A stretch of 64,000 nucleotides of DNA, from positions 1,462 through 65,461 of the forward strand of contig JAKLDH010000002.1 in NCBI GenBank assembly GCA_022703625.1. The letters are read 5' to 3'. The translations under genes and the position numbers were made by a program. Below the pieces are notes generated by a model, which worked only from the letters and a program-made list of their open reading frames with translations, was not told the DNA's origin and did no database searches. The stretch comes from Cyanobacteriota bacterium. Its GTDB lineage: Bacteria > Cyanobacteriota > Vampirovibrionia > Gastranaerophilales > UBA9971. Below are positions 4,131 to 58,710 of this stretch, piece after piece; positions within the stretch are counted from its first letter, which is position 1; each line of letters starts with the position of its first letter.

Positions 4131-4478
4131 TTATTCACTTTGTTCAGGTTGCTCAGGCATATTTTGCATCATCCCGCCTCGCATCCGTCCGGGCATTTGT
4201 CCGGGCTGCATTTGTTGTTTCTGTTGCATCATTTGGCGCATCATCGGACACTGGAACTCGACAGGTAACCTGCCTGTCTGCATATAATTTATCCATTGAA
4301 AACAAATCATTCCGGCGATTATTACTGCATAAATAATTAAAATCCATCCAAAAACTGCTCCAACTATTTTTTTCCAATTCTCTTCTTTTGTAGCAGCAGT
4401 TATGAGCCAGTAGCCTACGCCAAAACCTATTGCGATAATAATAAATTCCAATAGTGCGAACATTAATGTAGCTAACAT
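4131..4478 (-). CDS. small membrane protein with Met/Gln-rich C-terminal tail (putative Cu(I)-binding)
   Basis: Start moved to the internal ATG at 4478, which is preceded by AGGAGG. Two or three hydrophobic helices, then CPMMRQMMQQKQQMQPGQMPGRMRGGMMQNMP. Convergent with copA with a 4-nt gap. Confidence 0.6.
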   Translation of the reverse strand: MLATLMFALLEFIIIAIGFGVGYWLITAATKEENWKKIVGAVFGWILIIYAVIIAGMICFQWINYMQTGRLPVEFQCPMMRQMMQQKQQMQPGQMPGRMRGGMMQNMPEQPEQSE

Positions 4479-4584
4479 CTTTTTCCTCCTGTAGTCTGTG
4501 ATTTTAATAAACAATCATAAATATTCTAAAAACAACAGAGCCGGTAGATTGATAAATTTATTAGGAAATAATATCTATTGGGAA

Positions 4585-5307
4585 TTACCTTTGAGCATCT
4601 TTATTTATTACATCGCCCCGCTGACCAGTCTGGAAATTAAACTTGTACTGATAATTATCAAGTTTTTTGATGTCGAGTAGCTCTTCTGGAGGAGTATTTA
4701 GCAATTTTATACTTAAATCATTAGCCAATTTTTCAACTCTATCAAGGTCTTCAGGATTCACGTCCTTGTTTTCTGCTTTTGCCTTGCGAATTTTACTTTC
4801 AAGTTCCGCCTGTTCCTGTGGGAATACACCATCTTTTAAATGTACGCTGTAAGCTTCTCCTGTTGATATTCTCTGGATTATAAATCCATCGCCAATTTCA
4901 GGCTGAATGCTCAATGTTCCAAAGTTAGTTCTTGCGCTTGTCATCATAGATGCAGTATCCACCCAGCAAGGACCGTTTTTTGAAACAACTCTCAAGTCAG
5001 TCCTGTCAATTACTCCATCGGGAAAGAGCCTTTCAAGAACTGCTTTTATCTGGACATAAGAAATAACAAGTCCGTCGCATAAGTGCCCATGGATAAGTGC
5101 AAGGTCTTTAAGCGAAATATCCTTGGTTTTTAATGCATATCTGCCCAATGCACTTTCCGTATCAAGAACATTTATAGGCTGGTTATATTTCGCATTAACT
5201 GCCCACTCTGGATAATACCAGTGTGAAACCAAATTTGATTTCGGTGTACAAGCGGTAATCATTCCTGAAAATAATAATATAATTAATAACAAATTGATTT
5301 TTTTCAC
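4585..5307 (-). CDS. lipoprotein with FmdE-like motif
   Basis: 240 aa with a lipobox (LFSGMITAC). The HGHLCDG motif resembles the HGHxCPG signature of the FmdE domain. Family assignment is by motif only. Confidence 0.5.
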   Translation of the reverse strand: MKKINLLLIILLFSGMITACTPKSNLVSHWYYPEWAVNAKYNQPINVLDTESALGRYALKTKDISLKDLALIHGHLCDGLVISYVQIKAVLERLFPDGVIDRTDLRVVSKNGPCWVDTASMMTSARTNFGTLSIQPEIGDGFIIQRISTGEAYSVHLKDGVFPQEQAELESKIRKAKAENKDVNPEDLDRVEKLANDLSIKLLNTPPEELLDIKKLDNYQYKFNFQTGQRGDVINKDAQR

Positions 5308-9108: not shown

Positions 9109-10058
9109 AATATTATTACCCCCACGCATATAGATAAAATAATTGAAGGAACAGCGTATTGCATTTCCTTTATCACGCCTGAAAATGATGTATAAGTTGA
9201 TGCTCCTGTAAAATTCATTGCATAAAATGCGGACATGGCAGGAAAAACAAGCAAATAGCCTAAGTCATGCAATAAATTCTCTCCCGGTAAAAACAGGCTT
9301 GCCATAATAAGTCCCAATAACCAGCCTTTAAATGCAAAAGCCCTGCCCGGAATCCATGGCAATAAAACCGGAGTAAGAACACACCCTGCGATTAAAGCGC
9401 CTAAATAAGCATACAAATCTTTTATCCCAAAATGCTTAATCCCTATAAAATTTAGCAAGAAAAGCAATAGTAAAACAATGATAGAAGGTTTTATAGCGGC
9501 TGTTAATTCCAGTGGTGTTAAAACCAGACGGTCAATCATATTAAATTGCACTGTCCGCATTTCTTTTGTTGCTTTCATCCCTGCATTAATAAATTCTTTT
9601 ATGTCCTTTGCCCTAACAGGTCCATAAGTCACCTTAAAACCTGAATCTTTTAAAACTTCATGTGCGGATATTCCTACTGCTCCCAGTTGTGGAACTATAA
9701 TTGATTTATGGGAAACAACCTCAGCTAATTTCACCTCGGCAATACGGTTAACAAGCTCATTTGTGGCAAAAGTTCCTTTTGCAGCAGCACACCATACATT
9801 GATTCCTTTAGTATCAAGCACAAGTATCCATGCATTCAGGTCTTGAAGTTCTTTTCTAAGGGTATCAACGGTCAACTTGTAGTTTGCTGTAACGAGAACA
9901 GGCGAGTTGGAATCGGGGTTTCCAACAGCATATAATCCCGGAGTTAGTATATAACTCATCCTGTTTATGCCCCAGCGAGCTTTCCACGAATTTACAACAT
10001 CGCTAAAGGTTAATTGGGTTGAAATTTGAGGGATATTTTTATTAGAAAAATGTACCAT
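9105..10058 (-). CDS. hgcA: HgcA-like corrinoid protein (cap-helix NVWCAAAKG) with C-terminal transmembrane domain
   Basis: 317 aa. The N-terminal soluble half reads GLYAVGNP..SPVLVTANYKLT...LDTKGINVWCAAAKGTF. The C-terminal half has several hydrophobic helices. Cap-helix codons lie at 9777-9800. The gene overlaps the upstream permease by 17 nt. Confidence 0.75.
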   Translation of the reverse strand: MVHFSNKNIPQISTQLTFSDVVNSWKARWGINRMSYILTPGLYAVGNPDSNSPVLVTANYKLTVDTLRKELQDLNAWILVLDTKGINVWCAAAKGTFATNELVNRIAEVKLAEVVSHKSIIVPQLGAVGISAHEVLKDSGFKVTYGPVRAKDIKEFINAGMKATKEMRTVQFNMIDRLVLTPLELTAAIKPSIIVLLLLFLLNFIGIKHFGIKDLYAYLGALIAGCVLTPVLLPWIPGRAFAFKGWLLGLIMASLFLPGENLLHDLGYLLVFPAMSAFYAMNFTGASTYTSFSGVIKEMQYAVPSIILSICVGVIIL

Positions 10059-44415: not shown

Positions 44416-44718
44416 TTAGGATGCAAGCCGTTCCGATTCTTCGTTTCTTTTATGTAACCACGCCAAGCGTTTTATATAGCATTCCGTAACCTCACACTCA
44501 AGAGCCAACTGCATTCTGCTTTTCTTGCTACCGTCATAATTCCTGCAAATATAGCTATTCCTGATTTTTTTAAGTGCATTGCTCGGTATGTTAATTACTA
44601 CCCCTGGCAGGTCATTTAGTAGCGTCAGTGCAAATTCTATTCCATATAAATCTGCAATTATTCTTATGTCTTCATTTGGTAAATCTTCAAGATTTAAATT
44701 TTGTTGCCAGATTTTCAT
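44416..44718 (-). CDS. Mor-family transcription activator
   Basis: Start at ATG 44718, after AAAGGAG. The C-terminal HTH reads RNSYICRNYDGSKKSRMQLALECEVTECYIKRL. A paralog lies at 58408..58710. Confidence 0.75.
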   Translation of the reverse strand: MKIWQQNLNLEDLPNEDIRIIADLYGIEFALTLLNDLPGVVINIPSNALKKIRNSYICRNYDGSKKSRMQLALECEVTECYIKRLAWLHKRNEESERLAS

Positions 44719-45086
44719 ACCGTAAATCTCCTTTTGAATCATTATTTAGAGTGAATTTATATTCAAATGAAAGCCTGCGCCTTCCTGAGAAAACTCAGGC
44801 TTTCTGATTAACAAAGGAACATTGGTTGAAAAATCTGGACAGGATAGTTAAGCAACTATCAGCCTAATTTGTGAATCTTTTTTGTATCCCTTACCTGCCT
44901 CCCGTGTTTATATCTATATTATATATTTATTTATATATTCAAACTTCCTCTATTTGGAGTATTTACAGCCCTCAATCTCTTTATTTATATCACTTCATGC
45001 CATTTATAAATGGTCAAATTTACACTATTACTAAAAAATTAAACAATAAATGTTTTTTTTGCTTATTTTTCGTTAAAATTAAACAT

Positions 45087-45599
45087 TTAAAACCTTCTAA
45101 CTGCTCGTGCCGGATTAAAAGGGATATATCTATCCTTAAGAGATTTTTCAAGAATACTTCCAAGCAACTTCACAATATTATCAATGCTTTTGGGAGAAAG
45201 ACCTTCAGTCAATTTCTGTTCAATAAACTGGTCAATATTTTCCGGCTTAATTTGTGTAACCCTAAATTCAATAAAAAATGGAATAAGATGTTTATTCAGA
45301 CTGCATTTATAGGATTTAAAAGTGGATGCTGTACATTTGTTTTCAGCTTCACGCATAAAGTTTTTTGATGCGGTTTCAAACCCTATTATTCCTTTTCTTA
45401 ATTGGGGTCTTTTGGTTTTCCTGACATTAGGAATATGCCTATATTTATCCCAGCTTAATTTTTGGATAATTTTGTCTGATAAGAGTTTATCAAGGATTTT
45501 AGCTATTTCATTCTCGTTTAAATCAGTCATTACAGCAATATCATCCAGCGTGAATATGTTTAGCCCTTTTATTATTTTCAAAACTTTGTCTTGAATCAT
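45087..45599 (-). CDS. wHTH + integrase SAM-like core-binding domain protein (no catalytic domain)
   Basis: 170 aa. FMREAENKCTASTFKSYKCSLNKHLIPFF...ENIDQFIEQKLTEGLSPKSIDNIVKLLGSILEKSLKDRYIPFNPARAV is the N-terminal SAM-like domain pattern of tyrosine recombinases. The ORF stops right after it. Confidence 0.7.
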   Translation of the reverse strand: MIQDKVLKIIKGLNIFTLDDIAVMTDLNENEIAKILDKLLSDKIIQKLSWDKYRHIPNVRKTKRPQLRKGIIGFETASKNFMREAENKCTASTFKSYKCSLNKHLIPFFIEFRVTQIKPENIDQFIEQKLTEGLSPKSIDNIVKLLGSILEKSLKDRYIPFNPARAVRRF

Positions 45600-46281
45600 T
45601 CTTTAATATCTCCTTTATTATGTTTTCATCAATCAATTCAATATTATTGGTCTTGGCAACAGCTTCCAGTCTGCTAATAATTCGCACAATCTGCCTGAAC
45701 CTGTTTGCCTGGGTGTGAATAAAATTTACAGCAGGTTCTGTTATTTCTACTTCGCAAAGCTGTGTAACTATATCCTGTACATCATTTACAGAGAACGCTT
45801 TAAATTGGATTATTTCTGACAGCCTGTCATATAAATGCCTGTATTTTTGCAGTTTCTTTTCAGCTAATGTCATTCCAACAAAAATAATCGGGACATTCGT
45901 TTTATCATGAATGTCCCGAATTGTTTCTATTGTTTTCTGGTCGCCTGCAAGGTAATCAACCTCGTCAATAATTATCATCTGAGGTCGCTCTATAAGTTTA
46001 TTTACAGCCTGTTTAAACAATTCTGATGTCCAGTATTGCGGAATCTCTCCGAGTTCCTCAACAAGTTCTTCAAGAAACCATCTCCCGCTCATAAGGTTTG
46101 CGCTTCGTATGTAGACAGCATCATTTTGTGCTGCAAGCCATAAGGCTGTTCGTGATTTTCCAAGTCCCGGCTCTCCATAAACAAGTGCCATTCTTGAAAC
46201 CCCGTCAGGTTTATTCTGCAGGGAATTTATCAGGGCTATAAAGTTTTTAACGTTTTGTGTTTTTACAAAGATTTTACGCAT
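45541..46281 (-). CDS. MuB/TniB-like AAA+ transposition ATPase (copy 1)
   Basis: Start at ATG 46281 by comparison with copy 2. Walker A GEPGLGKSRTA and Walker B IIIDEVD. Confidence 0.8.
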   Translation of the reverse strand: MRKIFVKTQNVKNFIALINSLQNKPDGVSRMALVYGEPGLGKSRTALWLAAQNDAVYIRSANLMSGRWFLEELVEELGEIPQYWTSELFKQAVNKLIERPQMIIIDEVDYLAGDQKTIETIRDIHDKTNVPIIFVGMTLAEKKLQKYRHLYDRLSEIIQFKAFSVNDVQDIVTQLCEVEITEPAVNFIHTQANRFRQIVRIISRLEAVAKTNNIELIDENIIKEILKNDSRQSFENNKRAKHIHAG

Positions 46282-46288
46282 ATATATT

Positions 46289-48304
46289 TTATTCTCCATA
46301 TATCATTCTAAATTCATCACTGTTTTTGTAGTTCTGCAACCACTTTCGCTCTTCTGCTGAAGTGCAGCCATTCTCCATAAGCCACTCGTAGCGTTCATAG
46401 TTATTCAAAAATACAGGACGCAGTTTTTCTGGAATTGCTATCGGTTCTTTTTTAACTCCTTCCGGTGGAATTTCTTGCGGGATAGTTTCTTCAATCATTT
46501 GTGTCTCTAAAAATTTGATATCTTCTTTAGGCAGGTATTTTTTGATTGTCCGAAGTGTTCGATTACGTAATTGGGCTGGCTTTTTAATCTTTTGGATAAA
46601 ATCTTCCCTGTCTTTAATATCGCCAAGATGATATGCCATCGGGTGCGTTCCTGTAACTCTTTTTGCTGTGCATAAATATTCGCCTCTTGTTGAATAGACC
46701 TTGATTTTACTGAGGTTAAATAGACTGTATCTAATCATTACTCTGTCCCTGAGTCCGTATAAAGCATCGCTGTTGTAATCAGTGTTTAAAAACCTTATGC
46801 CGTTGCGATTTATTGTCTTTACCTCATGCGCCATCATTAGCTCATCAAGCTCATTGATGCCTATATTCTGCCTTATTCTACCCTCAAAAACCTGCTTTAT
46901 GCTCATTGTTCTATCATTAGGACATGGCTGGGAGTGCCTGTAGCTTAACCACGCATCAACAAACCGGATTGTTTCTTCAACAGTCGGGATATATCCCTGA
47001 TTGATTTTGTCATATAACTCTTTATGCAGTTTTTCATTGCGTTTCATATGAGCCGGTTTGTTTGCGATATTGCTGCCGGTGTATGTGGGTAGCAGTTTTT
47101 CAAACTCTTCCTGAAATTCTTTGAAGAAGCGTTCTATGACTTTAGCCCGGGCATTGTAGGGCTTGGCATAAACAGGCTTTATTCCAAGTTTGGTGTATAT
47201 TCCACTAAATCCGGCTTCTGTGAAGTCAGTTGATTTGGAAAAATATTTTGCTTTAAAAGCCTTTCCATTGTCCTGATAAACAATTCTTGGAATCATATCA
47301 AGGTTAATAATTGCCATACGCAGGGCTGAAGCTATACATTGGGTATTCTCTTCAAGCATAATTTCATATCCACACAAATAACCTGACTTCCAGTCAAGGA
47401 AGGCAACAATAACCGCCCTGCACGGTCTGCCTGTAAAGGGATTTAAGACAAGGAAGTTTAAACGGTGTCCGTCTGCTACTAAAACATCCCCGACTTCAAT
47501 TTTTGAAATGTCCCTGGATAAATATGGTTCGACCTTATCCCGAAGTGCCTTTTCCCCTTCTCGCATAAGTATCCACTTGTCATAATTCTGTCTCCTGAAA
47601 TATTCTGCGTATCTACGGAAGGTTATTGGTTTTGGAATATCTTCAATTCCTTTCTTTTCAAGAATATGGGTTGTAAGTTTTATTGCCTTACCAATGCTGA
47701 ATTGGTTTGGATGCAGGAGCAGTTTTAAAAATATTCCGATTTCTTCTTCTGTCAGCGTAGTTTTATACTCATCTGAATTTGTGTAATGGTACTGTGGGAC
47801 AAGAGCTTCCCAGTTTTCGTATTCAGAATAAAGTTTGTTCCAGCGCAGCAGGCTGCCTCTGGAGGTTTTACCAATAAGTCGGAACACATTTTTAAGATAT
47901 TCACCTGAGTTGTACAAATCAAGGAATAATTTATCCCCTTCGTGTTTTGGACTATGTTTATTCCTGAATTTTATCCATTCCTGAATCAAATCAACTTTTG
48001 CAAGAGCAACAGTCTTTGCCTGCGCCGGAATGAATCCTGATTCAGTCTGAACAGGTTTTTCAATCGGCAGAAGAATGTCATGATTTACCGTTTCAACTAT
48101 TTCCCTGTAATAAGTGTTTTTGTAAACCTCCTGAACCTGTGGCTCAAGGGAGGATAAAAGTATCTCATAACTTTTTCCTCCCTGAGTTTTTGTTTCCCTG
48201 AAAATATATTTACCTTTGCTTAAAGCTATTCTTAATGCTCGTGAAGTTACCTGTTTTATTTCTGCGATTGTTTTCAGGTCAACCCATAAGTTATTATCAC
48301 TCAT
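46289..48304 (-). CDS. Mu-type DDE transposase (copy 1)
   Basis: 671 aa. N-terminal HTH-like region, and DDE candidates in VLVADGH, YQDNGKAF and AKVIERFF. Confidence 0.85.
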   Translation of the reverse strand: MSDNNLWVDLKTIAEIKQVTSRALRIALSKGKYIFRETKTQGGKSYEILLSSLEPQVQEVYKNTYYREIVETVNHDILLPIEKPVQTESGFIPAQAKTVALAKVDLIQEWIKFRNKHSPKHEGDKLFLDLYNSGEYLKNVFRLIGKTSRGSLLRWNKLYSEYENWEALVPQYHYTNSDEYKTTLTEEEIGIFLKLLLHPNQFSIGKAIKLTTHILEKKGIEDIPKPITFRRYAEYFRRQNYDKWILMREGEKALRDKVEPYLSRDISKIEVGDVLVADGHRLNFLVLNPFTGRPCRAVIVAFLDWKSGYLCGYEIMLEENTQCIASALRMAIINLDMIPRIVYQDNGKAFKAKYFSKSTDFTEAGFSGIYTKLGIKPVYAKPYNARAKVIERFFKEFQEEFEKLLPTYTGSNIANKPAHMKRNEKLHKELYDKINQGYIPTVEETIRFVDAWLSYRHSQPCPNDRTMSIKQVFEGRIRQNIGINELDELMMAHEVKTINRNGIRFLNTDYNSDALYGLRDRVMIRYSLFNLSKIKVYSTRGEYLCTAKRVTGTHPMAYHLGDIKDREDFIQKIKKPAQLRNRTLRTIKKYLPKEDIKFLETQMIEETIPQEIPPEGVKKEPIAIPEKLRPVFLNNYERYEWLMENGCTSAEERKWLQNYKNSDEFRMIYGE

Positions 48305-48419
48305 TATTATTGCCTTTTACTTAAATTAACTCATTGGCAATGATAACTCTCCTATCACAAAAATAAAGTCTATTTCCGAGAGATGTGTCAGGTTTGAAAC
48401 ACTTTTAAATGGAAAAAAC

Positions 48420-48824
48420 TTAATTAATTCCAAAAAATTTTTTATTGCCTTGCTGCAATTTGAGGAACTCAGCTCTTAATCTTGTGGCTATATCTTCATT
48501 TGAGTCTAATAAATATATTTTATCTGGACAGATGATATTTTCATTTTCTTCACCTTTATTGTTGCTACTATCAAAATAAGAATAATCTGTGTAAACATCA
48601 TAAATTCCGTGATTTAAAATTTTCTGAACATAATATTCAAAGGAATTTTTTATATTATAAAAAAAGCATATTTGTCTATGGTTTCCATTTTGTTCAATTC
48701 CCTGAGCATCAACTTCCCTTACGGTTTTTCCACGGTCAGAAATATCAGAACTATTTGCAAATACATGTACATCAGCTAAATCTGCTGGATTGTAATATAA
48801 CCAGTCACAGTGAGGATGAAGCAA
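48420..48824 (-). pseudogene. AT-rich ORF with TTG start and no RBS; possible gene remnant
   Basis: 134-aa ORF with no recognisable family and no SD. It lies between the two head-to-head transposase genes. Confidence 0.25.
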
Positions 48825-48858
48825 ATAATACCTATGTTTATTGTATTTAATCAGGCAA

Positions 48859-49071
48859 TTCGAGTCAAAATGCAGACTTGGAAATCAGGCATAAACTCTT
48901 GATATATTTACATTTAATGCCTGTTGAATCAGTTTGAGCCATTTTGCAGTTTTTGCCTTTTTTCTGCAAAATTTAGGATGAGCCAAAATCCGTAGATAAT
49001 CCTCAAGTTTACTGTTGTGGCAGGATTTAAGGCATTGCAAGAATTGTGCAATTAGTTCGAGCCATTTTGCA
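48859..49071 (+). repeat. direct repeats of a 16-bp motif TTYGAGYCAWWWTGCA (3 clear copies + 1 partial)
   Basis: Copies at 48859-48874 (TTCGAGTCAAAATGCA), 48933-48948 (TTTGAGCCATTTTGCA) and 49056-49071 (TTCGAGCCATTTTGCA). A partial copy, GATGAGCCAAAATCCG, lies at 48977-48992. The second and third copies share about 25 bp including flanks. Confidence 0.6.
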
Positions 49072-49269
49072 TTTTTGAAAAGCTGGAAATAGCCGGAAGT
49101 TCGTTTTAAAAATTTTACAATTATCAGGAAGTTTTAAATAAAATATTCCTGCTTCTATTTATTTGAATGATTCAGAACAGACATAAATGTCGGAAAATGA
49201 CTTTAATTCTGAGCTATAGGATTTATAATGCCAATGACGCACTAATCCAAGCGAAAGAGGCAAAATATT

Positions 49270-51279
49270 ATGAATCCCAATATTATCTGGATTGATTTAA
49301 AAACAGCAGCGGAGATAAAAGATATTACTCCACGAGCCTTGAGATTAGCTCTTGCAAAGGGTAAATATACTTCTCGAGAATCCATTACTCAAGGCGGAAA
49401 AAGCTATGAAATTCTTTTATCTTCACTTGAGCCAAGAGTTCAGGAGATTTACAAAAATAAATATTATCAGGAAATAGTTGAACTGGAAGCCCAGATTATT
49501 CATATAACAAAACCTGAACCAATCGAATCAGGCTTTATTCCTGAAACAGCCAGAACAGTTGCACTTGCAAGATTAGATTTAATTCAAGAATGGCAACGGT
49601 TTAGAAAAGAGCATAAGCCTAAGAATAAAGGTGATAAACTATTTCTTGATTTATACAACTCAGGAGAGTATCTTAAAACTATTTTTCAGCTAATCGGTTC
49701 AACCTCAAGAGGAAGCCTTCAACGCTGGCATCGAAGTTATACAGAATATGAAAGCTGGGAAGCTTTAGTTCCTCAGTATAAATATACAAGTTTTAACGAG
49801 TATAAAACAATTTTATCGGAAGAAGAAATTGGAATATTTTTAAAAATTCTCCTGCACCCGAATCAATTTAATATCGGCAAGGCAATAAAACTTACAAAAC
49901 ATATTCTTGAAAAAAGAGGGTTTACTGATATACCTCAGCCGATTACATTTCGCAGATACGCTGAGTGGTTCAGGAAAAACAATTATGACAAGTGGGTTTT
50001 AATTAGAGAAGGTGAAAAAGCACTTGCTGATAAAGTTTCTCCATATATAAAAAGAGATATTTCAAAAATCAAAGTAGGTGAAATTCTTGTAGCTGACGGT
50101 CATAAGCTAAATTTTCTTGTACTAAACCCATTTACAGGCAAACCCTGTAGGGCAACAATTGTAGGTTTCTTAGACTGGAAATCAGGATATTTTGTAGGTT
50201 ATGAAATTATGCTTGAAGAAAATATTCAATGCATCGCCTCAGCTCTTAGAATGGCAATTATTAACCTTGATATAATTCCTCTTATTTCTTATCAGGATAA
50301 CGGCAGAGCTTTTAAAGCAAAATATTTCAGCGAATCCGCTGATTTTACGGAAGCAGGATTTAACGGAATATACACTAATCTTGGAATAAAACCAGTCTAC
50401 GCTAAACCTTACAATGCTAAAGCGAAGGTTATCGAAAGATTTTTTAAAGAATTTCAGGAAGAATTTGAAAAACTTCTGCCTACATATATAGGAAGCAGTA
50501 TAGAGAATAAACCGGCACATATGAAAAGGAATGAAAAATTCCACCTTGAATTGTATAACAGAATTAACAAGGGCTACGTTCCAACAATTGAAGAAGCAAT
50601 AAAGCTAATCGACTGCTGGCTTGATTACAGACACTCTCAACCCTGCTCCAATGATAGAAGCAAAACAATAAAAGAAGTTTTTGAATCAAGAGAACGGCAA
50701 AATATAGATAAGTCAAAACTTGATGATTTGATGATGGCTTATGAGGTAAAAACTATCCACCGTAACGGCATCAGGTTTTTAAGCTCCGATTATAACAATG
50801 ATTCACTTTATGGCTTAAGAGACAGAGTAATGGTTAAATACAGCCTGTTTGACCTCTCCAAAATTAAGGTTTATTCAACAAAAGGCGAATATTTATGCTC
50901 AGCTAAAAGAGTAACAGGAACTCACCCAATGGCTTATCATATGGGTGAAGTTAAAGATATGGAGGATTTTAAGCAAAAGATTCAAAAACAAAAACGGCTT
51001 AAAAATAGAACTTTAAGAACTATAAAGAAATTCTTACCTAAAGAAGATATTAAATTTCTTGAAACCCAGATGGATTTAGAAAGAATAGAGCAGGAAATCC
51101 CTGCAATAGAAGTCAAAAGCGAACCTCTGATTTTAGAAGATAAATTAAAACCTGTATTTATGAATAATTACGAAAGGTATGAATGGCTTATGAAAAATGG
51201 ATGCACAAGTCCTGAAGACCGCAGCTGGCTTCAAGAGTATAAAAATAGCGAAGAATATCAATTAATCTATGGGGAATAA
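49270..51279 (+). CDS. Mu-type DDE transposase (copy 2)
   Basis: 669 aa, collinear with copy 1 and roughly three-quarters identical by eye. Confidence 0.85.
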   Translation: MNPNIIWIDLKTAAEIKDITPRALRLALAKGKYTSRESITQGGKSYEILLSSLEPRVQEIYKNKYYQEIVELEAQIIHITKPEPIESGFIPETARTVALARLDLIQEWQRFRKEHKPKNKGDKLFLDLYNSGEYLKTIFQLIGSTSRGSLQRWHRSYTEYESWEALVPQYKYTSFNEYKTILSEEEIGIFLKILLHPNQFNIGKAIKLTKHILEKRGFTDIPQPITFRRYAEWFRKNNYDKWVLIREGEKALADKVSPYIKRDISKIKVGEILVADGHKLNFLVLNPFTGKPCRATIVGFLDWKSGYFVGYEIMLEENIQCIASALRMAIINLDIIPLISYQDNGRAFKAKYFSESADFTEAGFNGIYTNLGIKPVYAKPYNAKAKVIERFFKEFQEEFEKLLPTYIGSSIENKPAHMKRNEKFHLELYNRINKGYVPTIEEAIKLIDCWLDYRHSQPCSNDRSKTIKEVFESRERQNIDKSKLDDLMMAYEVKTIHRNGIRFLSSDYNNDSLYGLRDRVMVKYSLFDLSKIKVYSTKGEYLCSAKRVTGTHPMAYHMGEVKDMEDFKQKIQKQKRLKNRTLRTIKKFLPKEDIKFLETQMDLERIEQEIPAIEVKSEPLILEDKLKPVFMNNYERYEWLMKNGCTSPEDRSWLQEYKNSEEYQLIYGE

Positions 51280-51281
51280 AA

Positions 51282-52082
51282 ATGAAAAAGACTTTTGTCA
51301 GAACTCAAAATGTTAAAAACTTTATCTCGCTTATGAACTTGCTTCAAAGTAAACCTGATGGAGTTCCAAGAATGGCGTTGGTTTATGGAGAGCCTGGACT
51401 TGGTAAATCAAGAACAGCTCTTTGGTGGGCTGTAAAAAATGATGCAGTATATTTAAGAAGCTCCAATATGATGTCAGGAAGGTGGTTTCTGGAAGAGCTT
51501 GTTGAAGAACTGGGTGAAACTCCTTATTACAAAACATCAGATCTTTTTAAACAATGCGTAAACCAGCTTCTTCAAAATCCAAGAACTATACTGATTGATG
51601 AAATAGATTATTTAACAGGAGATTCAAGAACAATAGAAACCATCAGGGATATTCACGACAAAACCAATGTTCCAATTGTTATGCTTGGAATGAATAAAGC
51701 AGATAAAAAAATTATGCGATACCGCCACGTTTATGATCGTTTAAGCGAAATCCTCAAATTTGAATTATTTTCATTAACTGAGATACAAAGCATTATAACT
51801 CAGCTGTCAGAAGTTGAAATTACTGAGGATGCAGTAACTCTTATTCACTCTCAGGCTAATCGCCTGCGGCAGATAGTCGGGTTGATTAATAAAGCTGAAA
51901 AGTTAGCTCAGGCAAACGGTTTATCAAGAATAAATGCAGAAATTTTAAAAACAGGTGCCAGTGAAATTTTAGCTGAAACAAAAGTAATAAAAGATATAAG
52001 GAATGAGCTTATACAGCTCCCGCATTCGCAAAGGAGTAAAATTGATGAAAGACAAAATCCTCAAAATAGTCAAAGGGCTTAG
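51282..52082 (+). CDS. MuB/TniB-like AAA+ transposition ATPase (copy 2)
   Basis: 266 aa with GEPGLGKSRTA and LIDEID motifs. Confidence 0.8.
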   Translation: MKKTFVRTQNVKNFISLMNLLQSKPDGVPRMALVYGEPGLGKSRTALWWAVKNDAVYLRSSNMMSGRWFLEELVEELGETPYYKTSDLFKQCVNQLLQNPRTILIDEIDYLTGDSRTIETIRDIHDKTNVPIVMLGMNKADKKIMRYRHVYDRLSEILKFELFSLTEIQSIITQLSEVEITEDAVTLIHSQANRLRQIVGLINKAEKLAQANGLSRINAEILKTGASEILAETKVIKDIRNELIQLPHSQRSKIDERQNPQNSQRA

Positions 52083-52560
52083 AAAATTTACTATTGAAGA
52101 TATATCCATAATTGCAGAACTTGATGAAGAGGAAATTTATCCTTTAATTGAGCAGATGGTATCGGAGCAGAAAATAATTCAAATAAGCCATGATCAGTAT
52201 ATGAAAGCTGAAAAAATTATAAAAACAAAAAGGGAAACAACTAAAAAAGGAAAAATCGGTTTTAAAAAAGCGGCTCAGAATTTTATGACAGAGGCTGAAA
52301 ATAAATGTACGCCATCAACTTTTAAATCCTATAAAAGTGCATTTAATAAACATTTAAGCCCATTTTTTCAAGAATTTAGAATATGCGAAATTAAACCTGA
52401 AAATATTGATGAATTTATAGAACAAAAAATAGAGGAAGGGCTTTCAAATAAAACTATAGATAATATTGCCAAATTACTTGGCAGTATTCTGGAGAAGGCT
52501 CTTAAAGACAGGTATATTCCTTTTAATCCTGCAAGAGCGGTTAAAAAGCTTTATCTATAG
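52045..52560 (+). CDS. wHTH + integrase SAM-like core-binding domain protein (copy 2)
   Basis: Start at ATG 52045, after AAAGGAG. It is collinear with 45087..45599 and again ends just after ...FNPARAV. Confidence 0.7.
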   Translation: MKDKILKIVKGLRKFTIEDISIIAELDEEEIYPLIEQMVSEQKIIQISHDQYMKAEKIIKTKRETTKKGKIGFKKAAQNFMTEAENKCTPSTFKSYKSAFNKHLSPFFQEFRICEIKPENIDEFIEQKIEEGLSNKTIDNIAKLLGSILEKALKDRYIPFNPARAVKKLYL

Positions 52561-52561
52561 C

Positions 52562-53503
52562 TTAAGATCTTATTGTCCATAAAACTTTGTCTATTTTTCT
52601 TGGTGTCCAGAAATCAGTTTTAAATGCATTATTTAGTTCTATGGTCTTTTCTCGCAAAATAGCAGTTAACTCAACAAAATCTCTATTTTTTATCGCAATA
52701 GGATTTATATCTTGAACAATTTTGTTTAAAGACGATATATTTTGCAAATTTATGACCAAAAATTGATCAACAGTTCCGTATATTTCTGGAAATAGTAAAG
52801 ATAATAATCCTGAAGCTCCAGCTACACCCAAGCCTTTTATTTCGGAGGCAAGTTTTATCATTGTAAAAGATTCTTCTTTATCTGAAACAAAAAGAATACG
52901 TGAAATTATTTCATCAATTTTAGCATTATCATTTTGGTAAGCTTTTTTAAAAGCTGCTGTAGTTGTAGCGTATCTATTTGGAGCTGTGTATTTCCATTTG
53001 AAATATTTATTAAGTAAAAAGTCATACCAAGAGTTACCAAGTTCCAATTTGTCCAAATCGTTGGGTTTTCTTACGACACAAAGCTTTTCTTCAAGCTCAA
53101 TTTCAATATTATAATTTTCATCTTTTACTCTGGAATAATAACTTGATAAAGCATTAGTCCATTTTTCTTCATCACAACTATTCCATAATGAAGTAATAGA
53201 AATTAAATTCGCATTATTAGATTTAGCAATTTTAATTAATTCTGTATGTGTTTTGATTGGAATAAACTTAAAATCTTCCAGAGATTTAAGTTTATTCATT
53301 GTTTCTCTACTCCCAGTGATAAGCCATTCAAGGTCGACATTGAATTTTTCATAAATATTTACAAAAAATTTCAGATCGGGTTCTTTTTCCGATGCTTCAT
53401 ATAGATTAATATCTGATTCTGGAATATTTAACTCCAGAGCAAATTGAGATATATCAAGATTTTTTAAATTTCTGAATTCTTTTAATCTATTTCCAAAAGT
53501 CAT
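52562..53503 (-). CDS. XRE-HTH fusion protein with uncharacterised C-terminal domain (HhH-like GLGVAGASGLL motif)
   Basis: 313 aa, visibly AT-rich. The N-terminal HTH reads FGNRLKEFRNLKNLDISQFALELNIPESDINLYEASEKEP. The C-terminal domain of about 230 aa is unassigned. Confidence 0.6.
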   Translation of the reverse strand: MTFGNRLKEFRNLKNLDISQFALELNIPESDINLYEASEKEPDLKFFVNIYEKFNVDLEWLITGSRETMNKLKSLEDFKFIPIKTHTELIKIAKSNNANLISITSLWNSCDEEKWTNALSSYYSRVKDENYNIEIELEEKLCVVRKPNDLDKLELGNSWYDFLLNKYFKWKYTAPNRYATTTAAFKKAYQNDNAKIDEIISRILFVSDKEESFTMIKLASEIKGLGVAGASGLLSLLFPEIYGTVDQFLVINLQNISSLNKIVQDINPIAIKNRDFVELTAILREKTIELNNAFKTDFWTPRKIDKVLWTIRS

Positions 53504-53558
53504 AATTTACTCTTCTGAATATTCGTTCGGTACTATTACTGGATAGTGTGAAAATTCG

Positions 53559-54251
53559 TTAAAATACGCTTTTTCCATGCCATACAACTTTACCTATAAC
53601 TGCAAAAGAATCTTCATCTTTTAAATCAACTTCAAAAGTCGGATGCTCAGGATTATCACTCTTTATTTGAAGTTTTTCTTTAGGCATTAAAGAAAGCCTT
53701 TTAACTAGAAGAGTATTATCAAATCTGACAACAAAAATACCATCTCTGATACGTTTATCCGAGGTGTCTATCATAATCAGATCGCCATTTTTAATGGTAG
53801 GCTCCATCGATTCGCCATGAGCTGTAAATATAACTAAATCAGGCTTAGAGCCGCAAATATTTTTATTAAACCAATCAATTTTAAAAGCAAAATGGTCTAT
53901 AACTGTTTCTTCATCAACAATACATCCATGCCCGGCAGCCGCTCTAATATCATAAATAGGAATATACACATAATCGCTGCTGCAGACATCAAAGTTTTTC
54001 TTGCTTTCTTCTGTTGCAAACATTGCACCTTTTCCAAAAAGAAGCCATTCTGTATTTGCACCCAAATGTTCCGCAATAAGAGCCAAATATTCTACGGTAG
54101 GCTTTCGCTCACCTTTTTCATAATTACTTATAGATTTATACGGGACATTTATCATTCTGCTTAACTCTGAGACGTTAAGAGCAGACTGCACCCTGATTTC
54201 TCTGAGTCTGTCACCTATATTATTTAATGCTTTAATTTTTTGTTCGCTCAT
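53559..54251 (-). CDS. CI/LexA-like repressor (XRE HTH + S24 peptidase)
   Basis: 230 aa. HTH LNVSELSRMINVPYKSISNYEKGERKP. S24 catalytic context HGESMEPTIKNGDLIMID and LLVKRL. Confidence 0.85.
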   Translation of the reverse strand: MSEQKIKALNNIGDRLREIRVQSALNVSELSRMINVPYKSISNYEKGERKPTVEYLALIAEHLGANTEWLLFGKGAMFATEESKKNFDVCSSDYVYIPIYDIRAAAGHGCIVDEETVIDHFAFKIDWFNKNICGSKPDLVIFTAHGESMEPTIKNGDLIMIDTSDKRIRDGIFVVRFDNTLLVKRLSLMPKEKLQIKSDNPEHPTFEVDLKDEDSFAVIGKVVWHGKSVF

Positions 54252-54275
54252 TTGTTCCTAAAAAATACTTAACAT

Positions 54276-54338
54276 ATGTACTATCTTGTATTGACAAGTT
54301 GGTACAAATGGGAATAGAATAATTAAACAAATGTACTA
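54276..54338. promoter_or_regulatory. early operator/promoter region (TGTAC-core repeats; TTGACA-18-TAGAAT)
   Basis: ATGTACTA at 54276-54283 and 54331-54338, and GGTACAAAT at 54301-54309. The -35 TTGACA lies at 54291-54296 and the -10 TAGAAT at 54315-54320, facing the ner-like gene. Confidence 0.5.
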
Positions 54339-54361
54339 ACTCTAATATAAGATTACCACAA

Positions 54362-54550
54362 ATGAATAAAAAAACTAGACTCGGTTGGTTTAAAAGTAAA
54401 CTTTTGCATAGAAACTTAACAATCGCTGATATCGCTATGGAGCTTGGTATCAGCGAAAGGCAAGTTTATAAACTTATTTGTGGTGACCATAAAAATGAAA
54501 AGTTTAAACAGTGGGTTATTAAACGTTTGGGCAATCCTATTTGGTTGTAA
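54362..54550 (+). CDS. Ner/Cro-like small DNA-binding protein
   Basis: 62 aa. HTH LTIADIAMELGISERQVYKLICG. Located between repressor and transposase. Confidence 0.65.
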   Translation: MNKKTRLGWFKSKLLHRNLTIADIAMELGISERQVYKLICGDHKNEKFKQWVIKRLGNPIWL

Positions 54551-54565
54551 ACAAAGGAAGAACAA

Positions 54566-56533
54566 ATGAGCAGGGAAACAATAAATACGAATAATTCGCT
54601 TTGGCTCGATGAAAATCAAGCCTGTTCTCTGCTTGGATTAAAACCGGATACTTTGAGGAAGAAATGCAGAGCCGGTGAGTATATTTTCAAAATAGTTAAA
54701 AAGTCTAAAACAAGTGAATATAAAGTGCTTTTGTCTTCTCTGCCAGAGCTTTATCAAAGCAAATATCAAAGCAGGTTTTTAAAAACTTCTGAATCTAATT
54801 TTGACCCGAATGTATATAATGATGCTCCTGATTGGGCAAAACGTCAGGCAGAAAAATATGTAACTATAATCAAACGTTCTGAAGGATTAAGAGGCAAAGA
54901 ATTAAAAGCTTTTATAAATGAATGGAATAAGGTTAATCCTGAATTTAGAACATCTTACGCCAGAGTTAATGATGCAAGGCTTAAATACTACACTGGCGGA
55001 ATTTCTGCATTACTTGCACAGTATGGAAAAACAGCAGGCAGCACAGTTGTTAAAGATAATCATTTTGAATATTTCAAAAGTCTGTATCTTAAAGAAGGTG
55101 CTCCTTCTCTTTATACCAGCTGGTTTTACACTTTAGGCTATGCCGTTAGAGTTGATGGAATCATAAAAGAAGCATTTCCTTCAAGATTTAGCTTTAAAAG
55201 AAGACTTTTACAGGAAATTCCAGAGCAGTCTATTTATCTTGCCAGATATGGTGAAGCTAAATGGAACAGAAGATATTCAAACTATATTGATAGAGATTAT
55301 TCTGGCATTAGATGCGGAAGTGTTTGGACATCAGACCATGCACAGCTCGATGTTGCTTGTGAAATAGAAGACGGCAGAGTTGTATTTCCATGGATTACTG
55401 CTTGGAGAGATTTTAAAGGAGGTAAATGGTTAAGCTGGATTTTACAGCCTGACAATCCTAATTCTGACCATATTTTTCAAACTTTTTACTATGCAGCAGA
55501 CGAGTACGGCATTCCTGAAGATATCATTATCGATAACGGTAAAGATTACAGAGCTAAGGATTTTGCAGGCGGCAGAAAAGTTCATAAAATTTCCGTTGAT
55601 GAAGTTAAAACAAATTCAATGCTTGATAATCTTGGAGTAAAAGCCCATTTTGCACTTCCATATAATGCTCAGACTAAAACTATTGAAAGAGATTTTCTTA
55701 AAATTAAAGAACTCTTCTCTAAGCATATGCAGGGTTACAGGGGCGGAAATGTAACAGAGCGTCCTGAAAAACTGAAAATTGAAATTAAACAGGGCAAGAT
55801 ATTGAAATTTAGTGAACTAAAAGAAATATTTAATGACTTCATAGAAAACGTATTTAATAAATACCCTTCAAATGGCAAGATTCTTCAGGGCAGATCATCT
55901 GATGAATTATGGGCGGAAGAATTTAGAGAAAAAAGAGTTGTTTCAAAAGATGCATTAAAGCTATTCTGCACAAGAACTTCAAAGACCTTCTCCATTACAC
56001 GAAACGGAGTAAAGGATTCAGAGCTTGGAATAACCTATTGGGCAGACTGGATGATTGGTGTAAAAGGCGAAAAAGTTTATTTAAGAAGAGATATAAAAAA
56101 TTACAATGAAGCCTGGATATTTAAAGCTGATAATGATGAATTTATAGGGAAGGCTCAAGTTTCTGAACTTGTCCCTGCACTTGCTTCTACTGAAATTGAA
56201 AAGAGCGAATTTAAAGAAGCTATGGCTGTTAAAAAACGTAATAAAAAAATAGCTAAAGCATATGCTAAAACTCAAGAAACAGACGTAAACGACAGAATGC
56301 TTAATCTGAAAGCAGCTGTTGGAGATAAAGAATACAAGGCAGAGCCTAAAATCTCCAAGATAGCTAATACAAAAATGGATAAAGTTATCAGAAAACAAAA
56401 TGATATTGAAAAAATAGGAACTTACGATTTATCAGGATTTGTGGATAAAAAACCTGAAAAGAGAAAGATTTACCTGTTTGAAAGCGACAAAGAATTAGAT
56501 GAACTGGCAATGGGAGCAGGATATGGATCTTAG
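54566..56533 (+). CDS. Mu-type DDE transposase (MuA-like, third lineage)
   Basis: 655 aa with an N-terminal HTH region. DDE candidates in WTSDHAQLD, IIDNGKDY and TKTIERDF. It is only distantly related to copies 1 and 2. Confidence 0.85.
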   Translation: MSRETINTNNSLWLDENQACSLLGLKPDTLRKKCRAGEYIFKIVKKSKTSEYKVLLSSLPELYQSKYQSRFLKTSESNFDPNVYNDAPDWAKRQAEKYVTIIKRSEGLRGKELKAFINEWNKVNPEFRTSYARVNDARLKYYTGGISALLAQYGKTAGSTVVKDNHFEYFKSLYLKEGAPSLYTSWFYTLGYAVRVDGIIKEAFPSRFSFKRRLLQEIPEQSIYLARYGEAKWNRRYSNYIDRDYSGIRCGSVWTSDHAQLDVACEIEDGRVVFPWITAWRDFKGGKWLSWILQPDNPNSDHIFQTFYYAADEYGIPEDIIIDNGKDYRAKDFAGGRKVHKISVDEVKTNSMLDNLGVKAHFALPYNAQTKTIERDFLKIKELFSKHMQGYRGGNVTERPEKLKIEIKQGKILKFSELKEIFNDFIENVFNKYPSNGKILQGRSSDELWAEEFREKRVVSKDALKLFCTRTSKTFSITRNGVKDSELGITYWADWMIGVKGEKVYLRRDIKNYNEAWIFKADNDEFIGKAQVSELVPALASTEIEKSEFKEAMAVKKRNKKIAKAYAKTQETDVNDRMLNLKAAVGDKEYKAEPKISKIANTKMDKVIRKQNDIEKIGTYDLSGFVDKKPEKRKIYLFESDKELDELAMGAGYGS

Positions 56534-57398
56534 AATTGAACTTAAAAAACTAATGCAGGAAAAAGGCTACAGCTTTCAGGCTGTGTCTCGTGCAACAGCA
56601 ATTTCAGCCACAACTCTTAATTTGTGGCTGAATAATAACTATGTCGGCAATCTTGATAAAATATCAGATTCTATTCACAGCTTTATTATTAGAGAAAAAG
56701 AAAGAAGATATAAGCAAACAATTCCGTTTGTTGAAACCAGTATTGCAAAAAATATTTTTGAAATAGCACAAATTTGCCATATTAATGGTGAAATTGGAGT
56801 CTGCTACGGCAGAGCAGGACTTGGCAAAACCTTTGCGGTTAAACAATATGCAAGGCAAAATTCTGACGTAATTTTGATTGAAACAGACCCCGGCTTTTCT
56901 ACAAGGACAGTTCTTTTAGAATTACATAAAAGACTTGGGCTTTCAGCTAAAGGAAGTCTTTATGCAATGACTCTTGAAATCATTGAGAGGCTTGAAAAAT
57001 CAGGCAGGCTTATTATTGTTGACGAGGCTGAAAATCTTCCGTATAAAGCACTGGAATTGTTAAGAAGAATTCACGATAAAACTGAAGCCGGAGTGTTACT
57101 TGTCGGTCTTCCTGCTCTTGTTGAAAACCTAAGAGGATTAAAAGGGCAGTATGAACAGCTTTATTCAAGGGTTGGCGTGTCAAAAAAACTTGAACCGCTT
57201 CAGTTTAATGATACAGAAATGATTTTAAAAGAAGTTTCTCAAGATATTGATGCAATAAGTGCTTTTCACGATTTATCAAAAGGAAATACCAGAGTTTTAT
57301 CAAAATTGATAATGAGATCAGCAAGAGTGGCTATTATCAATAAAACTTCTGTTGATAAATCAATAGTTGAAGAAACTTTCAAGATGCTTATTGTGTGA
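56523..57398 (+). CDS. MuB-like DNA transposition ATPase
   Basis: Start at ATG 56523, after GGAGCAGG. N-terminal HTH (KGYSFQAVSRATAISATTLNLW), Walker A GRAGLGKTF and Walker B IIVDEAE. Confidence 0.85.
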   Translation: MDLRIELKKLMQEKGYSFQAVSRATAISATTLNLWLNNNYVGNLDKISDSIHSFIIREKERRYKQTIPFVETSIAKNIFEIAQICHINGEIGVCYGRAGLGKTFAVKQYARQNSDVILIETDPGFSTRTVLLELHKRLGLSAKGSLYAMTLEIIERLEKSGRLIIVDEAENLPYKALELLRRIHDKTEAGVLLVGLPALVENLRGLKGQYEQLYSRVGVSKKLEPLQFNDTEMILKEVSQDIDAISAFHDLSKGNTRVLSKLIMRSARVAIINKTSVDKSIVEETFKMLIV

Positions 57399-57405
57399 GG
57401 ATTTT

Positions 57406-57579
57406 ATGAAAAGTAAAGAAAAGATTTTTTATACATTTTTAATAATCCTATCAATATTCACTCTTGGAGTTCAAGTTGGAATTCATCATGGACGAGAACT
57501 TCAAAGGGTTGAAGATATTAGAATTCAGCGTATGCAGGAATATATTTTCAAAAATATGGCAAGATGCGAGGCTATATGA
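57406..57579 (+). CDS. small single-TM protein (kil-like position)
   Basis: Start at ATG 57406, after GAGGA. 57 aa with TM segment FYTFLIILSIFTLGVQVGI. Confidence 0.45.
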   Translation: MKSKEKIFYTFLIILSIFTLGVQVGIHHGRELQRVEDIRIQRMQEYIFKNMARCEAI

Positions 57580-58016
57580 TTACTAAAAATCAGATTAAAA
57601 AACTTCAAACTTTAAAAAAAGTCCTCAGCCTTTCTGATGACATATACAGGGATGTTCTTGAAATGTCTTTTAATGTTAATTCCTGTACAAAATTGACATC
57701 GGAGCAAGCAGGTATGCTTATTGATGATTTTGAAAATTCTGCAATTCAACTGGGATTATGGAATAAGCCAGAGTTGAAGTTTGAAAATCTTTCAAACAGA
57801 AAATCTATGGCAACTCCAAAACAGTTAAGAATGATTGAAGCTATGTGGAGGGAGGTGAGTTATCGAGAAGACGATGAATTTGTAAAGCAATCGCTTAGAA
57901 AGTTTCTGTCAGGTCATTTTTACGTTAGCGATTTAAGATTTATAGACAGAGCAAAAGCAAGCAAAATTATTAATGCGATTAAAAATATTAAAAAAAGTTG
58001 TTTAAAGACCAGTTAA
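57576..58016 (+). CDS. GemA/gp16 (DUF1018) family protein
   Basis: Start at ATG 57576, with an ATGA overlap. MITKNQIKKLQTLKKVLSLSDDIYRDVLE... is the family pattern. Confidence 0.7.
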   Translation: MITKNQIKKLQTLKKVLSLSDDIYRDVLEMSFNVNSCTKLTSEQAGMLIDDFENSAIQLGLWNKPELKFENLSNRKSMATPKQLRMIEAMWREVSYREDDEFVKQSLRKFLSGHFYVSDLRFIDRAKASKIINAIKNIKKSCLKTS

Positions 58017-58051
58017 ATGTAGTTTAAACCTAATTTAAAGGAGATTCAAAA

Positions 58052-58291
58052 ATGGAAATCAAAGAAAAAGTTTTAGCAGTAATTGGAAGCCAAATTTCAG
58101 ACATAAAGGATAAATTAACCGAATCAAAGGTTAAATTTGCTGAATGCTGCTTAAATGAAGAAGAATGGCAAATCAGAATTAAGTACGAAAAAATGTGCAA
58201 AATTTATGAAGGACAAATAGCTGTTCTTGAAGGACTGGAAAGAACTTTGGAAAATGATATCTTTGTCATAGCTCTTCCAATGAAAATTTAA
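58052..58291 (+). CDS. hypothetical early protein
   Basis: 79 aa, RBS aaaggag. Confidence 0.5.
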   Translation: MEIKEKVLAVIGSQISDIKDKLTESKVKFAECCLNEEEWQIRIKYEKMCKIYEGQIAVLEGLERTLENDIFVIALPMKI

Positions 58292-58407
58292 AGGTCGAAA
58301 CAGGATTGCGTGAGCAGGAGTAAAACTCATTTTAAAGCCATCCCTGCTCCGGCTTTCCTGTCGCAGAGTTATGCTCTGCCTAATGAGATCAAATTTAAAG
58401 GATTTTT

Positions 58408-58710
58408 ATGGAACTTAAACCATGGATGCAAAATTTAATGCCGGCAGATATGCCAAATTCCGAATTAAAAGAACTTGCTGAAGAATTTGGCATTCAATCT
58501 GCGTTGGAAGTTATTTCAGCGTGGGCTGGTCTTATTGTAAGCGTTCCAAAACAACCTTTTAGGGATTTATTAAACAAATATATTATTAACAATTATGATG
58601 GTACAAGGGCATCAATTGTTAAACTTGCCAAAGAATGCGAAGTTACTGACAGATATATTTACTATCTTTTAAAAAAGTTGAAAACGGCTAAAAATAGCTC
58701 TTCGATTTAA
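58408..58710 (+). CDS. Mor-family transcription activator
   Basis: 100 aa. NNYDGTRASIVKLAKECEVTDRYIYYLLKK is the C-terminal HTH. Paralog of 44416..44718. Confidence 0.75.
   Translation: MELKPWMQNLMPADMPNSELKELAEEFGIQSALEVISAWAGLIVSVPKQPFRDLLNKYIINNYDGTRASIVKLAKECEVTDRYIYYLLKKLKTAKNSSSI

Follow-up and report, generated by a model that had tools for sequence, protein, structure and literature searches.

A winged-helix and integrase core-binding protein as a candidate target selector of Mu-type transposition modules found next to tRNA genes

Two Mu-type transposition modules in the window, by which we mean the whole 64-kb stretch of DNA analysed here, carry as their third gene a short gene, X, whose product joins a winged helix to the core-binding (CB) domain of tyrosine integrases. 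X is conserved at this short length under selection and is not a decaying fragment. As to its function, we see about an even chance that X is a non-catalytic third subunit of a Mu-type machine made of a transposase (A) and an ATPase (B), acting as the target selector.

The third gene and its module

The window carries three MuA/MuB-type modules, laid out as follows.

Module 1, minus strand (A, B and X1, then a Mor-like gene):
46289..48304, minus strand: A1, MuA-like DDE transposase, 671 aa (Mu-transpos_C 8e-15, rve, phrog_310 5e-102)
45541..46299, minus strand: B1, MuB/TniB-like AAA+ ATPase, 252 aa (AAA_22 1e-17, TniB 3e-8, phrog_296 8e-43)
45087..45599, minus strand: X1, third gene of module 1, 170 aa, stop codon at 45087-45089; winged helix, linker and core-binding domain
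44743..45086: 344-bp spacer from X1 to the Mor-like gene, without a catalytic-domain remnant
44416..44742, minus strand: Mor-like late activator downstream of X1 (phrog_836 9e-8)
48305..48841, minus strand: upstream region of A1, with a leader and an orphan 134-aa ORF (48420-48824)
Module 2, plus strand (A, B and X2):
48842..49269, plus strand: left end of the module-2 element, with the terminus 5'-TGTATTTAATCAGGCA at 48842, then repeats, then the A2 leader
49270..51279, plus strand: A2, MuA-like transposase, 75% identical to A1
51282..52082, plus strand: B2, ATPase of module 2
52045..52560, plus strand: X2, third gene of module 2, 171 aa, 60-61% identical to X1
52562..57398: downstream partner of module 2, comprising a 313-aa HTH gene (minus strand), an S24 c-type repressor (minus strand) and a second MuA/MuB pair
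Module 3, classical set:
53559 to 58710: c-repressor, A', B', gemA and mor
54566-56533 and 56499-57398, plus strand: second classical MuA/MuB pair

In alignments, D278, D345 and E391 of A1 form an invariant DDE triad, and the Walker A and Walker B motifs are invariant in B1 and its relatives. Mor, lysis, tail and head genes come after A and B in the X-bearing prophages, which are thus Mu-like prophages; the MuA-type DDE transposase, the MuB-type ATPase and the phage late genes together place X in a Mu-like early module. The ATG of X1 lies 10 nt downstream of a Shine-Dalgarno (SD) sequence, AAGGAG, within the final 59 nt of the ATPase gene. For X2, the longest ORF begins at 52003, but AAGGAG is found 8 nt ahead of the ATG at 52045, and X2 homologues also begin at the position matching 52045, which gives a protein of 171 aa and a 38-nt overlap with the ATPase gene. 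The initial annotation of this DNA had described both copies as the third gene of a DDE/AAA+ module, with a start inside the ATPase gene and, in copy 1, 344 bp of non-coding DNA behind it, and the gene order, the overlaps and the spacer all bear this description out.

In the same genome, a further module (module 4, on contig C1), whose A and B are 83% identical to those of module 1, has a third gene of 364 aa at the same position after A and B. Its product begins like X, with this winged helix and CB domain, and continues into a Phage_integrase domain; a Mor gene comes next. We refer to such genes as the long form and to X as the short form.

The CB domain of X was recognised by the Pfam profile Phage_int_SAM_3 (PF14659) with 31.0 bits in X1 and 39.7 bits in X2, against a gathering score of 22.6 bits; the match in X1 covers residues 74-127. 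An AlphaFold2 model of X1, with a mean pLDDT of 86.6, showed the following parts.

45426..45599, minus strand: residues 1-58, winged helix (DSSP helices at 2-13, 18-25 and 29-41, strands at 45-47 and 53-55)
45393..45425, minus strand: residues 59-69, basic disordered linker (pLDDT below 50)
45090..45392, minus strand: residues 70-170, tyrosine-integrase core-binding (SAM-like) domain, ending in the NPARAV motif

Within the last of these, AlphaFold2 placed a four-helix bundle at residues 74-155, and Foldseek equated the bundle with integrase CB domains (2kd1, 3nrw, lambda Int 1z19 and Tn1549 Int) at a TM score by target of about 0.8 and an rmsd of 1.3-1.8 Å over about 99 columns. The N-terminal domain of X1 matched winged-helix regulators in Foldseek, and X gave a weak match to phrog_633, 'transcriptional regulator'. 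X thus has a winged helix and a single CB domain, with no Cys clusters. No TniQ domain was matched in X by Pfam at E ≤ 0.1, and a survey of ORFs with Pfam found neither a TniQ nor a TnsA gene in the module. The catalytic domain Phage_integrase (PF00589) was absent from both X1 and X2 in the Pfam search, and tblastn with the catalytic half of the long form detected no remnant downstream of either gene. Because the ORF stops after the CB domain, with neither a PF00589 match nor a remnant behind it, X is not a recombinase. Pfam, AlphaFold2 and Foldseek therefore agree with the earlier view of both copies as proteins of about 170 aa with a wHTH-like N-terminal region and a CB domain; the domain assignment held in profile searches of both copies, as did the claim that a tyrosine-recombinase catalytic domain is lacking.

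The partner arrangement after module 2 (HTH gene, S24 repressor and second MuA/MuB pair) was seen again in other genomes. Two tandem MuA/MuB pairs were present in the window (49270-57398), in loci L001, L008, L108 and L112-L115, and altogether in 21 of 43 surveyed loci; from the other side, all eight A'-homologue loci with upstream DNA had the arrangement. In two-pair elements the A-B-third-gene module lies at the extreme left end and is directly followed by the classical A'-B'-gemA-mor set, whose A'-B' genes are only 24% identical to the first A-B set. A c repressor and ner separate the two pairs in the Gastranaerophilales examples, and about 400-570 bp do so in the gut clade. Since the third gene abuts or overlaps the repressor gene, there is no space for a separate element end between the pairs. 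The second classical pair in many members may mean that one pair serves targeted integration and the other replicative transposition. We also note two orphan ORFs without a family match, one of 134 aa (window 48420-48824, minus strand) and one of 270 aa (L008, 3377-4189), both located between the left-end repeats and the A leader, a moron-like position within the transposon end. Another short-form module, in L109, has a gene for an Mrr-type restriction endonuclease (4214-5125) after X and a Mor-sized gene.

tRNA-adjacent insertion, element ends and exchange of the third gene

With the transposase as the entry point, we collected some 80 further loci and looked in each for A, B, the third gene and tRNAs; where public records name a host, it is a Candidatus Gastranaerophilales MAG. 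Adjacency was counted in the 45 non-redundant loci that had an intact A gene and at least 1.5 kb of upstream DNA. In 36 of these 45 loci, a tRNA or tmRNA gene in the same orientation lay within 3 kb upstream of A, and in 24 it lay within 1.2 kb. An opposite-orientation tRNA was seen in 1 of the 45 loci, and the remainder of these loci contained 2 tRNAs in 632 kb. The clade is thus tRNA-adjacent, and its insertion is not random. The genes used were those for tRNAs of Met, Ser, Arg, Val, Pro, Ala, His, Asp, Asn and Leu, plus tmRNA. When related elements were compared, conservation started at 5'-TGTA(A/T)TTT, 38-177 nt past the tRNA 3′ end and just beyond the terminator, and at one host tRNA-Met site related elements had inserted at two different positions. 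Oriented TGTA termini at variable spacing, together with two positions at one tRNA-Met, fit DDE transposition and not site-specific recombination.

In a gut-metagenome subclade the third gene has no CB domain, yet tRNA adjacency was found there too, so that adjacency as such does not depend on a CB domain. Third proteins in this subclade that are at least 80% identical adjoin different tRNAs (Met, Arg and Ser), which indicates that a single tRNA identity is not simply encoded. The recognised feature may be common to tRNA genes or may be something indirect.

A few of the retrieved loci had an unusual structure. Stacked elements were seen in L048 (about 9580-9645), where one left end has inserted into that of a different related element, 62 nt in, and in L050 (about 2560-2660), where the left end is preceded, at a distance of ~45 nt, by an inverted end-like repeat belonging to another element. 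In L010 (8220-15110), an A-B-long-form module is followed by opposite-strand, defence-like cargo and not by phage genes; the cargo consists of T5orf172, a DEAD/ResIII helicase, Bro-N and an MmeI-type restriction-modification enzyme. This locus has no tRNA within 1.4 kb upstream, and its left region holds a threefold ~200-bp repeat between two copies of a ~100-bp leader.

For the genome under study, the left terminus of the module-2 element could be placed at 48842 from contig C8 (reverse strand), on which a tRNA-Met gene and a further 137 nt precede a final 111 nt that match the window without a difference from 48842 on. The match starts exactly at the TG of the terminus, with no identity to its left. 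The same type of terminus occurs in 25 or more other loci. Repeats in the same orientation lie in this left end at about 48859, 48933, 48977 and 49056, and the repeats that the initial annotation had seen at 48859-49071 are thus the subterminal repeats of the module-2 element. On contig C79, the module-2 terminus is joined instead to the upstream region of A1. With two left flanks (C8 and C79), module 2 has two junctions in the sample; either there are two copies, or the strains differ, or transposition into prophage 1 is still going on. The module-2 left end cuts off the DNA upstream of A1, and prophage 1 has no terminal repeats of its own there. Within the window, neither X-bearing module adjoins a tRNA, the module-2 left end meeting inverted prophage-1 DNA; between these head-to-head modules, neither ARAGORN nor BLAST with all 36 tRNAs of the genome found a tRNA or tRNA fragment. 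Module 4 is located after tRNA-Ile/tRNA-Ala.

A search of the retrieved flanks for right ends, as the reverse complement of each locus's left terminus, found none; the 38-kb IMG/VR record behind L097 stops within the phage head genes and contains no right end. A 5-bp target-site duplication was not found. Three candidates were rejected. A right-end candidate on contig C76 (TACA/TTAGC) lies in host-like DNA without prophage homology, inside a common hairpin repeat, and was attributed to chance; a left-end-like 16-mer on C78 falls within a coding region; and a ~190-bp repeat after several tRNAs, considered as a miniature derivative of the element, has hundreds of copies genome-wide and is not tRNA-specific. 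Repeats of ~170-190 bp with GC-rich internal hairpins and inverted ends, present in hundreds of copies (for example C130 10775-10967 and C68 28879-29047), look like a MITE or REP-type element. This repeat ends many contigs and is probably the reason for the MAG being in 166 pieces.

The third gene overlaps the end of B in every surveyed locus, and its variants have in common only the winged helix (residues 1-65), to which HMM matches between them were confined. C-terminally, they carry a CB domain alone (X, and a variant that an insertion brings to 342 aa), a CB domain plus a catalytic domain that is either degenerate or partial, a 160-aa domain without a Pfam or PDB match (gut clade, 220-242 aa in total) or several winged helices. 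The gut-clade protein (L042 12650-13315 and 21 relatives) was modelled at a pLDDT of 90 with the same winged helix and a second domain of helices and a beta-sheet, in which Cys, Arg and Trp positions are conserved; PDB searches with this 160-aa domain gave no match at E ≤ 0.001. X forms a single clade (93/97), but in the A tree the modules that carry it are dispersed among those with a long form. In that tree, L001, which carries X, is sister to L008, which carries a long form, Y (100/97). The left ends of these two loci are 76-86% identical, and their third genes, X vs Y, about 40% identical. The scatter of X in the A tree, together with shared ends but different third genes in L001 and L008, indicates that the gene moves as a cassette. 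Short-form modules with a known flank (module 2 through C8, and L001) both come after tRNA-Met, and L008 comes after tmRNA, which is suggestive of the short form going with tRNA-Met in these two cases only.

We further modelled the complex of B1 with X1, which gave an ipSAE of 0.64 compared to 0.19 for the best control. Among solved complexes, 58 of 80 came up to this mark, as did 2 of 110 mismatched pairs; these counts are rough, since we used our own alignments. Runs of the B1 and X1 model shared at least 50% of contacts, with a partner pLDDT of at least 81. In the predicted interface, X1 contributes helices 1-2 of its winged helix (residues 5, 8-9, 11-13, 19, 22-25 and 58), and B1 contributes residues 9-11, 50-65 and 81, in the N-terminal part beside the Walker A region. 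As a prediction, the model supports binding of B by the winged helix of X, and the modelled contact would fit the conservation pattern, with a constant ATPase plug and a variable DNA-reading head.

Proposed function and its alternatives

If X is the target selector, its CB domain would bind DNA at or near the 3′ part of the tRNA gene. Tyrosine integrases, the source of the CB domain, are a class known for using tRNA genes as attachment sites. The winged helix would hold B, such that X positions or nucleates B on the adjoining DNA; B would then recruit the A-bound element ends, and insertion would land beyond the tRNA terminator, always in one orientation, with no need for the chemistry of a tyrosine recombinase. 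Forms of 364 aa (long), ~325 aa (partial) and 170 aa (short) would represent domestication stages of one integrase-derived selector, whose gene would be exchanged between modules as a cassette. Several points speak against the selector: CB-less third genes are likewise found beside tRNAs, third proteins at least 80% identical adjoin different tRNAs, neither X-bearing module of the window adjoins a tRNA, no right end or target duplication was found, and a distance that varies from 38 to 177 nt contrasts with the fixed spacing of Tn7 or CASTs, being far looser. The selector could instead be an N-terminal domain of A, B itself or a host factor.

The initial annotation had suggested an end-binding or target-selecting factor. 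The second half of this suggestion gains circumstantial support from oriented tRNA-adjacent insertion, the modelled ATPase contact and cassette swapping, whereas the first half is disfavoured by the ends of L001 and L008. Extending the selector reading to the whole group is more doubtful, and we offer it tentatively: a widespread family of Mu-like phages and related transposons in Gastranaerophilales MAGs, human-gut and other metagenomes might lysogenise at a safe site downstream of tRNA and tmRNA genes by means of A, B and an exchangeable selector, the winged helix of which plugs into B and the DNA-binding part of which was captured from a tRNA-targeting tyrosine integrase and domesticated stepwise, from a degenerate to a partial to an absent catalytic domain.

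An unlikely but still appreciable alternative is that X is an end-binding, transpososome-assembly or regulatory protein, with the left-end repeats (48859-49071) or the A-B-X promoter as its targets. X would then resemble an architectural factor or a Ner/c-type regulator, and some other component would provide the tRNA targeting. In its favour, the winged helix is a domain typical of transcription regulators, in line with the Foldseek matches and the weak match to phrog_633; phages of the module-1 and module-4 types have no c or ner genes upstream of A; and CB domains bind DNA at recombination sites. A protein that binds ends should co-vary with them, though, and L001 and L008, with shared left ends and sister A genes, differ in the third gene, which argues against an end-binding role. 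In addition, the first repeat lies 17 nt from the terminus, resembling a transposase L1 site, and the winged helix is modelled on the ATPase, where it would not be free for DNA.

We consider it improbable that tRNA adjacency stems from A, from B or from some property of the host (strong transcription of tRNA loci, for instance, or their terminators), with X unrelated to targeting and engaged, for example, in transposition immunity or in control of the second MuA/MuB pair. Such a role would accommodate the CB-less third genes found next to tRNAs, the near-identical third genes at different tRNAs, the variable spacing to the tRNA and the second A'/B' pair of many elements. It is harder to reconcile with the third gene being the only other universally conserved member of the operon, overlapping B in every locus, and with the conserved domain of its product being modelled on B.

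The remaining alternatives concern the relation of the short form to the long form. The long form comprises about 48 clusters, which are sharply apart from ordinary integrases. In 38 long forms, read by alignment to the Tn1549 integrase, K replaces Arg-I in 36, N or D takes the place of His-II in 37, and D that of His-III in 34; Arg-II and Tyr are retained, and the canonical set of catalytic residues was not found. Since non-canonical residues occur throughout the long forms, catalysis looks dispensable in the gene family. An exhaustive profile search also identified complete intermediates of ~325 aa, directly after a B gene, whose catalytic domain ends ahead of the Tyr region, and a second, distant stand-alone CB gene behind another A-B pair. 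The long form could nonetheless be an atypical active recombinase, used for example in cointegrate resolution or excision, with the short form as its non-catalytic partner or competitor; the invariance of Tyr and Arg-II in the 38 long forms and the conserved, non-random nature of the substitutions (K, N/D and D) would agree with this. We give this possibility little credence, as X-bearing elements have neither a long form nor another integrase in the module, complete 325-aa forms lack the Tyr-bearing segment, and the change of Arg-I to Lys is also that of the R225K chains of the Tn1549 integrase, to which the long-form family aligns.

The short form itself fell into ten 90% clusters of 169-176 aa, with 54-85% identity between clusters, and the stop position is kept in all ten, each ending 3-9 residues after NPARAV. 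Across 15 pairs of short-form genes, pN was 0.14-0.26 and pS was 0.58-0.82 (saturated), a sign of strong purifying selection. The full-length homologues in the same module position show that the short form is an evolutionary truncation of an integrase-derived family, and the shared stop motif, the low pN relative to pS and the complete intermediates show that it is not decaying. The initial annotation had held that full-length integrase homologues in related elements would mark both copies as truncations; such homologues are present, including on contig C1 of the same genome, but the truncated form is conserved and selected. That both copies are non-functional remnants of a truncated integrase gene, as the full-length homologues at the same position might suggest, is thus highly improbable, given a length and stop kept across clusters 54-85% identical, pN much below pS, intact SD sequences and no catalytic-domain debris downstream.

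Comparison with known systems

The combination of a CB-domain protein with a DDE/AAA+ module had been thought undescribed in the initial annotation. It has a precedent in TnsF of Tn6022, which descends from a tyrosine recombinase, is no longer catalytic and selects the target for a DDE/AAA+ transposon (Faure et al. 2023, Mol Cell; PMC10293859). TnsF binds comM and directs the Tn7-like element through TniQ; it has an active-recombinase relative in the Tsy element and a fusion form without the catalytic domain, and it combines N-terminal zinc fingers, tandem CB domains and a partial catalytic domain in a TnsA-B-C-Q element (PMC10293859). Like TnsF, X is recombinase-derived, non-catalytic and encoded with a DDE transposase and an AAA+ ATPase, a likeness of function only, and the catalytic-loss series of TnsF parallels the long, partial and short forms described here. 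Unlike TnsF, X consists of no more than a winged helix and a single CB domain, 170 aa in all and without zinc fingers, and lies directly after a MuB-like gene, without TniQ or TnsA, in Mu-like prophages beside tRNA or tmRNA genes. tRNA genes are also recurrent targets of Tn7-like elements (PMC9881144). In our literature search we found no description of tRNA-directed Mu-like phages, and in the GenBank phage collection no isolated phage encodes a relative, the only match being to the CB part of an ordinary Bacillus phage integrase (E = 8e-4).

X resembles TniQ/TnsD in being third after transposase and ATPase (compare the tniA-tniB-tniQ order of Tn5053-like elements) and in having a conserved N-terminal part that is predicted to sit on the ATPase and a variable, probably DNA-binding C-terminal part. 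It differs in build, the TniQ core being helical with a zinc finger where X has a winged helix and a CB domain. With integrase CB domains (lambda Int 75-356, Tn1549 Int and the NESG structures 2kd1, 2kob and 3nrw), X shares the four-helix fold and the Pfam families; it departs from ordinary integrases in being without a catalytic domain and in carrying an N-terminal winged helix, which they do not have.

The operon as a whole resembles the A/B operon of phage Mu. A has Mu-transpos_C, the DDE triad and an I-gamma-like domain, B is an AAA+ ATPase, and Mor, lysis, tail and head genes follow. Phage Mu inserts almost at random with a 5-bp target duplication and, to our knowledge, has no such third subunit, whereas the clade described here is tRNA-adjacent and many of its members have two A/B pairs.

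If the selector reading is true, X would represent a second, independent domestication of a tyrosine-recombinase DNA-binding module by a DDE transposon, after TnsF, with intermediates still extant, and it would explain lysogeny of a transposable phage without mutagenesis of the host. A, B and X, at ~1,100 residues in total, would then provide oriented insertion of large DNA beside tRNA genes without CRISPR or TniQ, which would be of interest for genome engineering, and the swappable C-terminal domain would be a natural handle for retargeting. In textbooks, Mu-like phages stand for near-random insertion and Tn7-like elements for guided insertion; a Mu-type machine with an integrase-derived guide, if that is what A, B and X form, would link the two.
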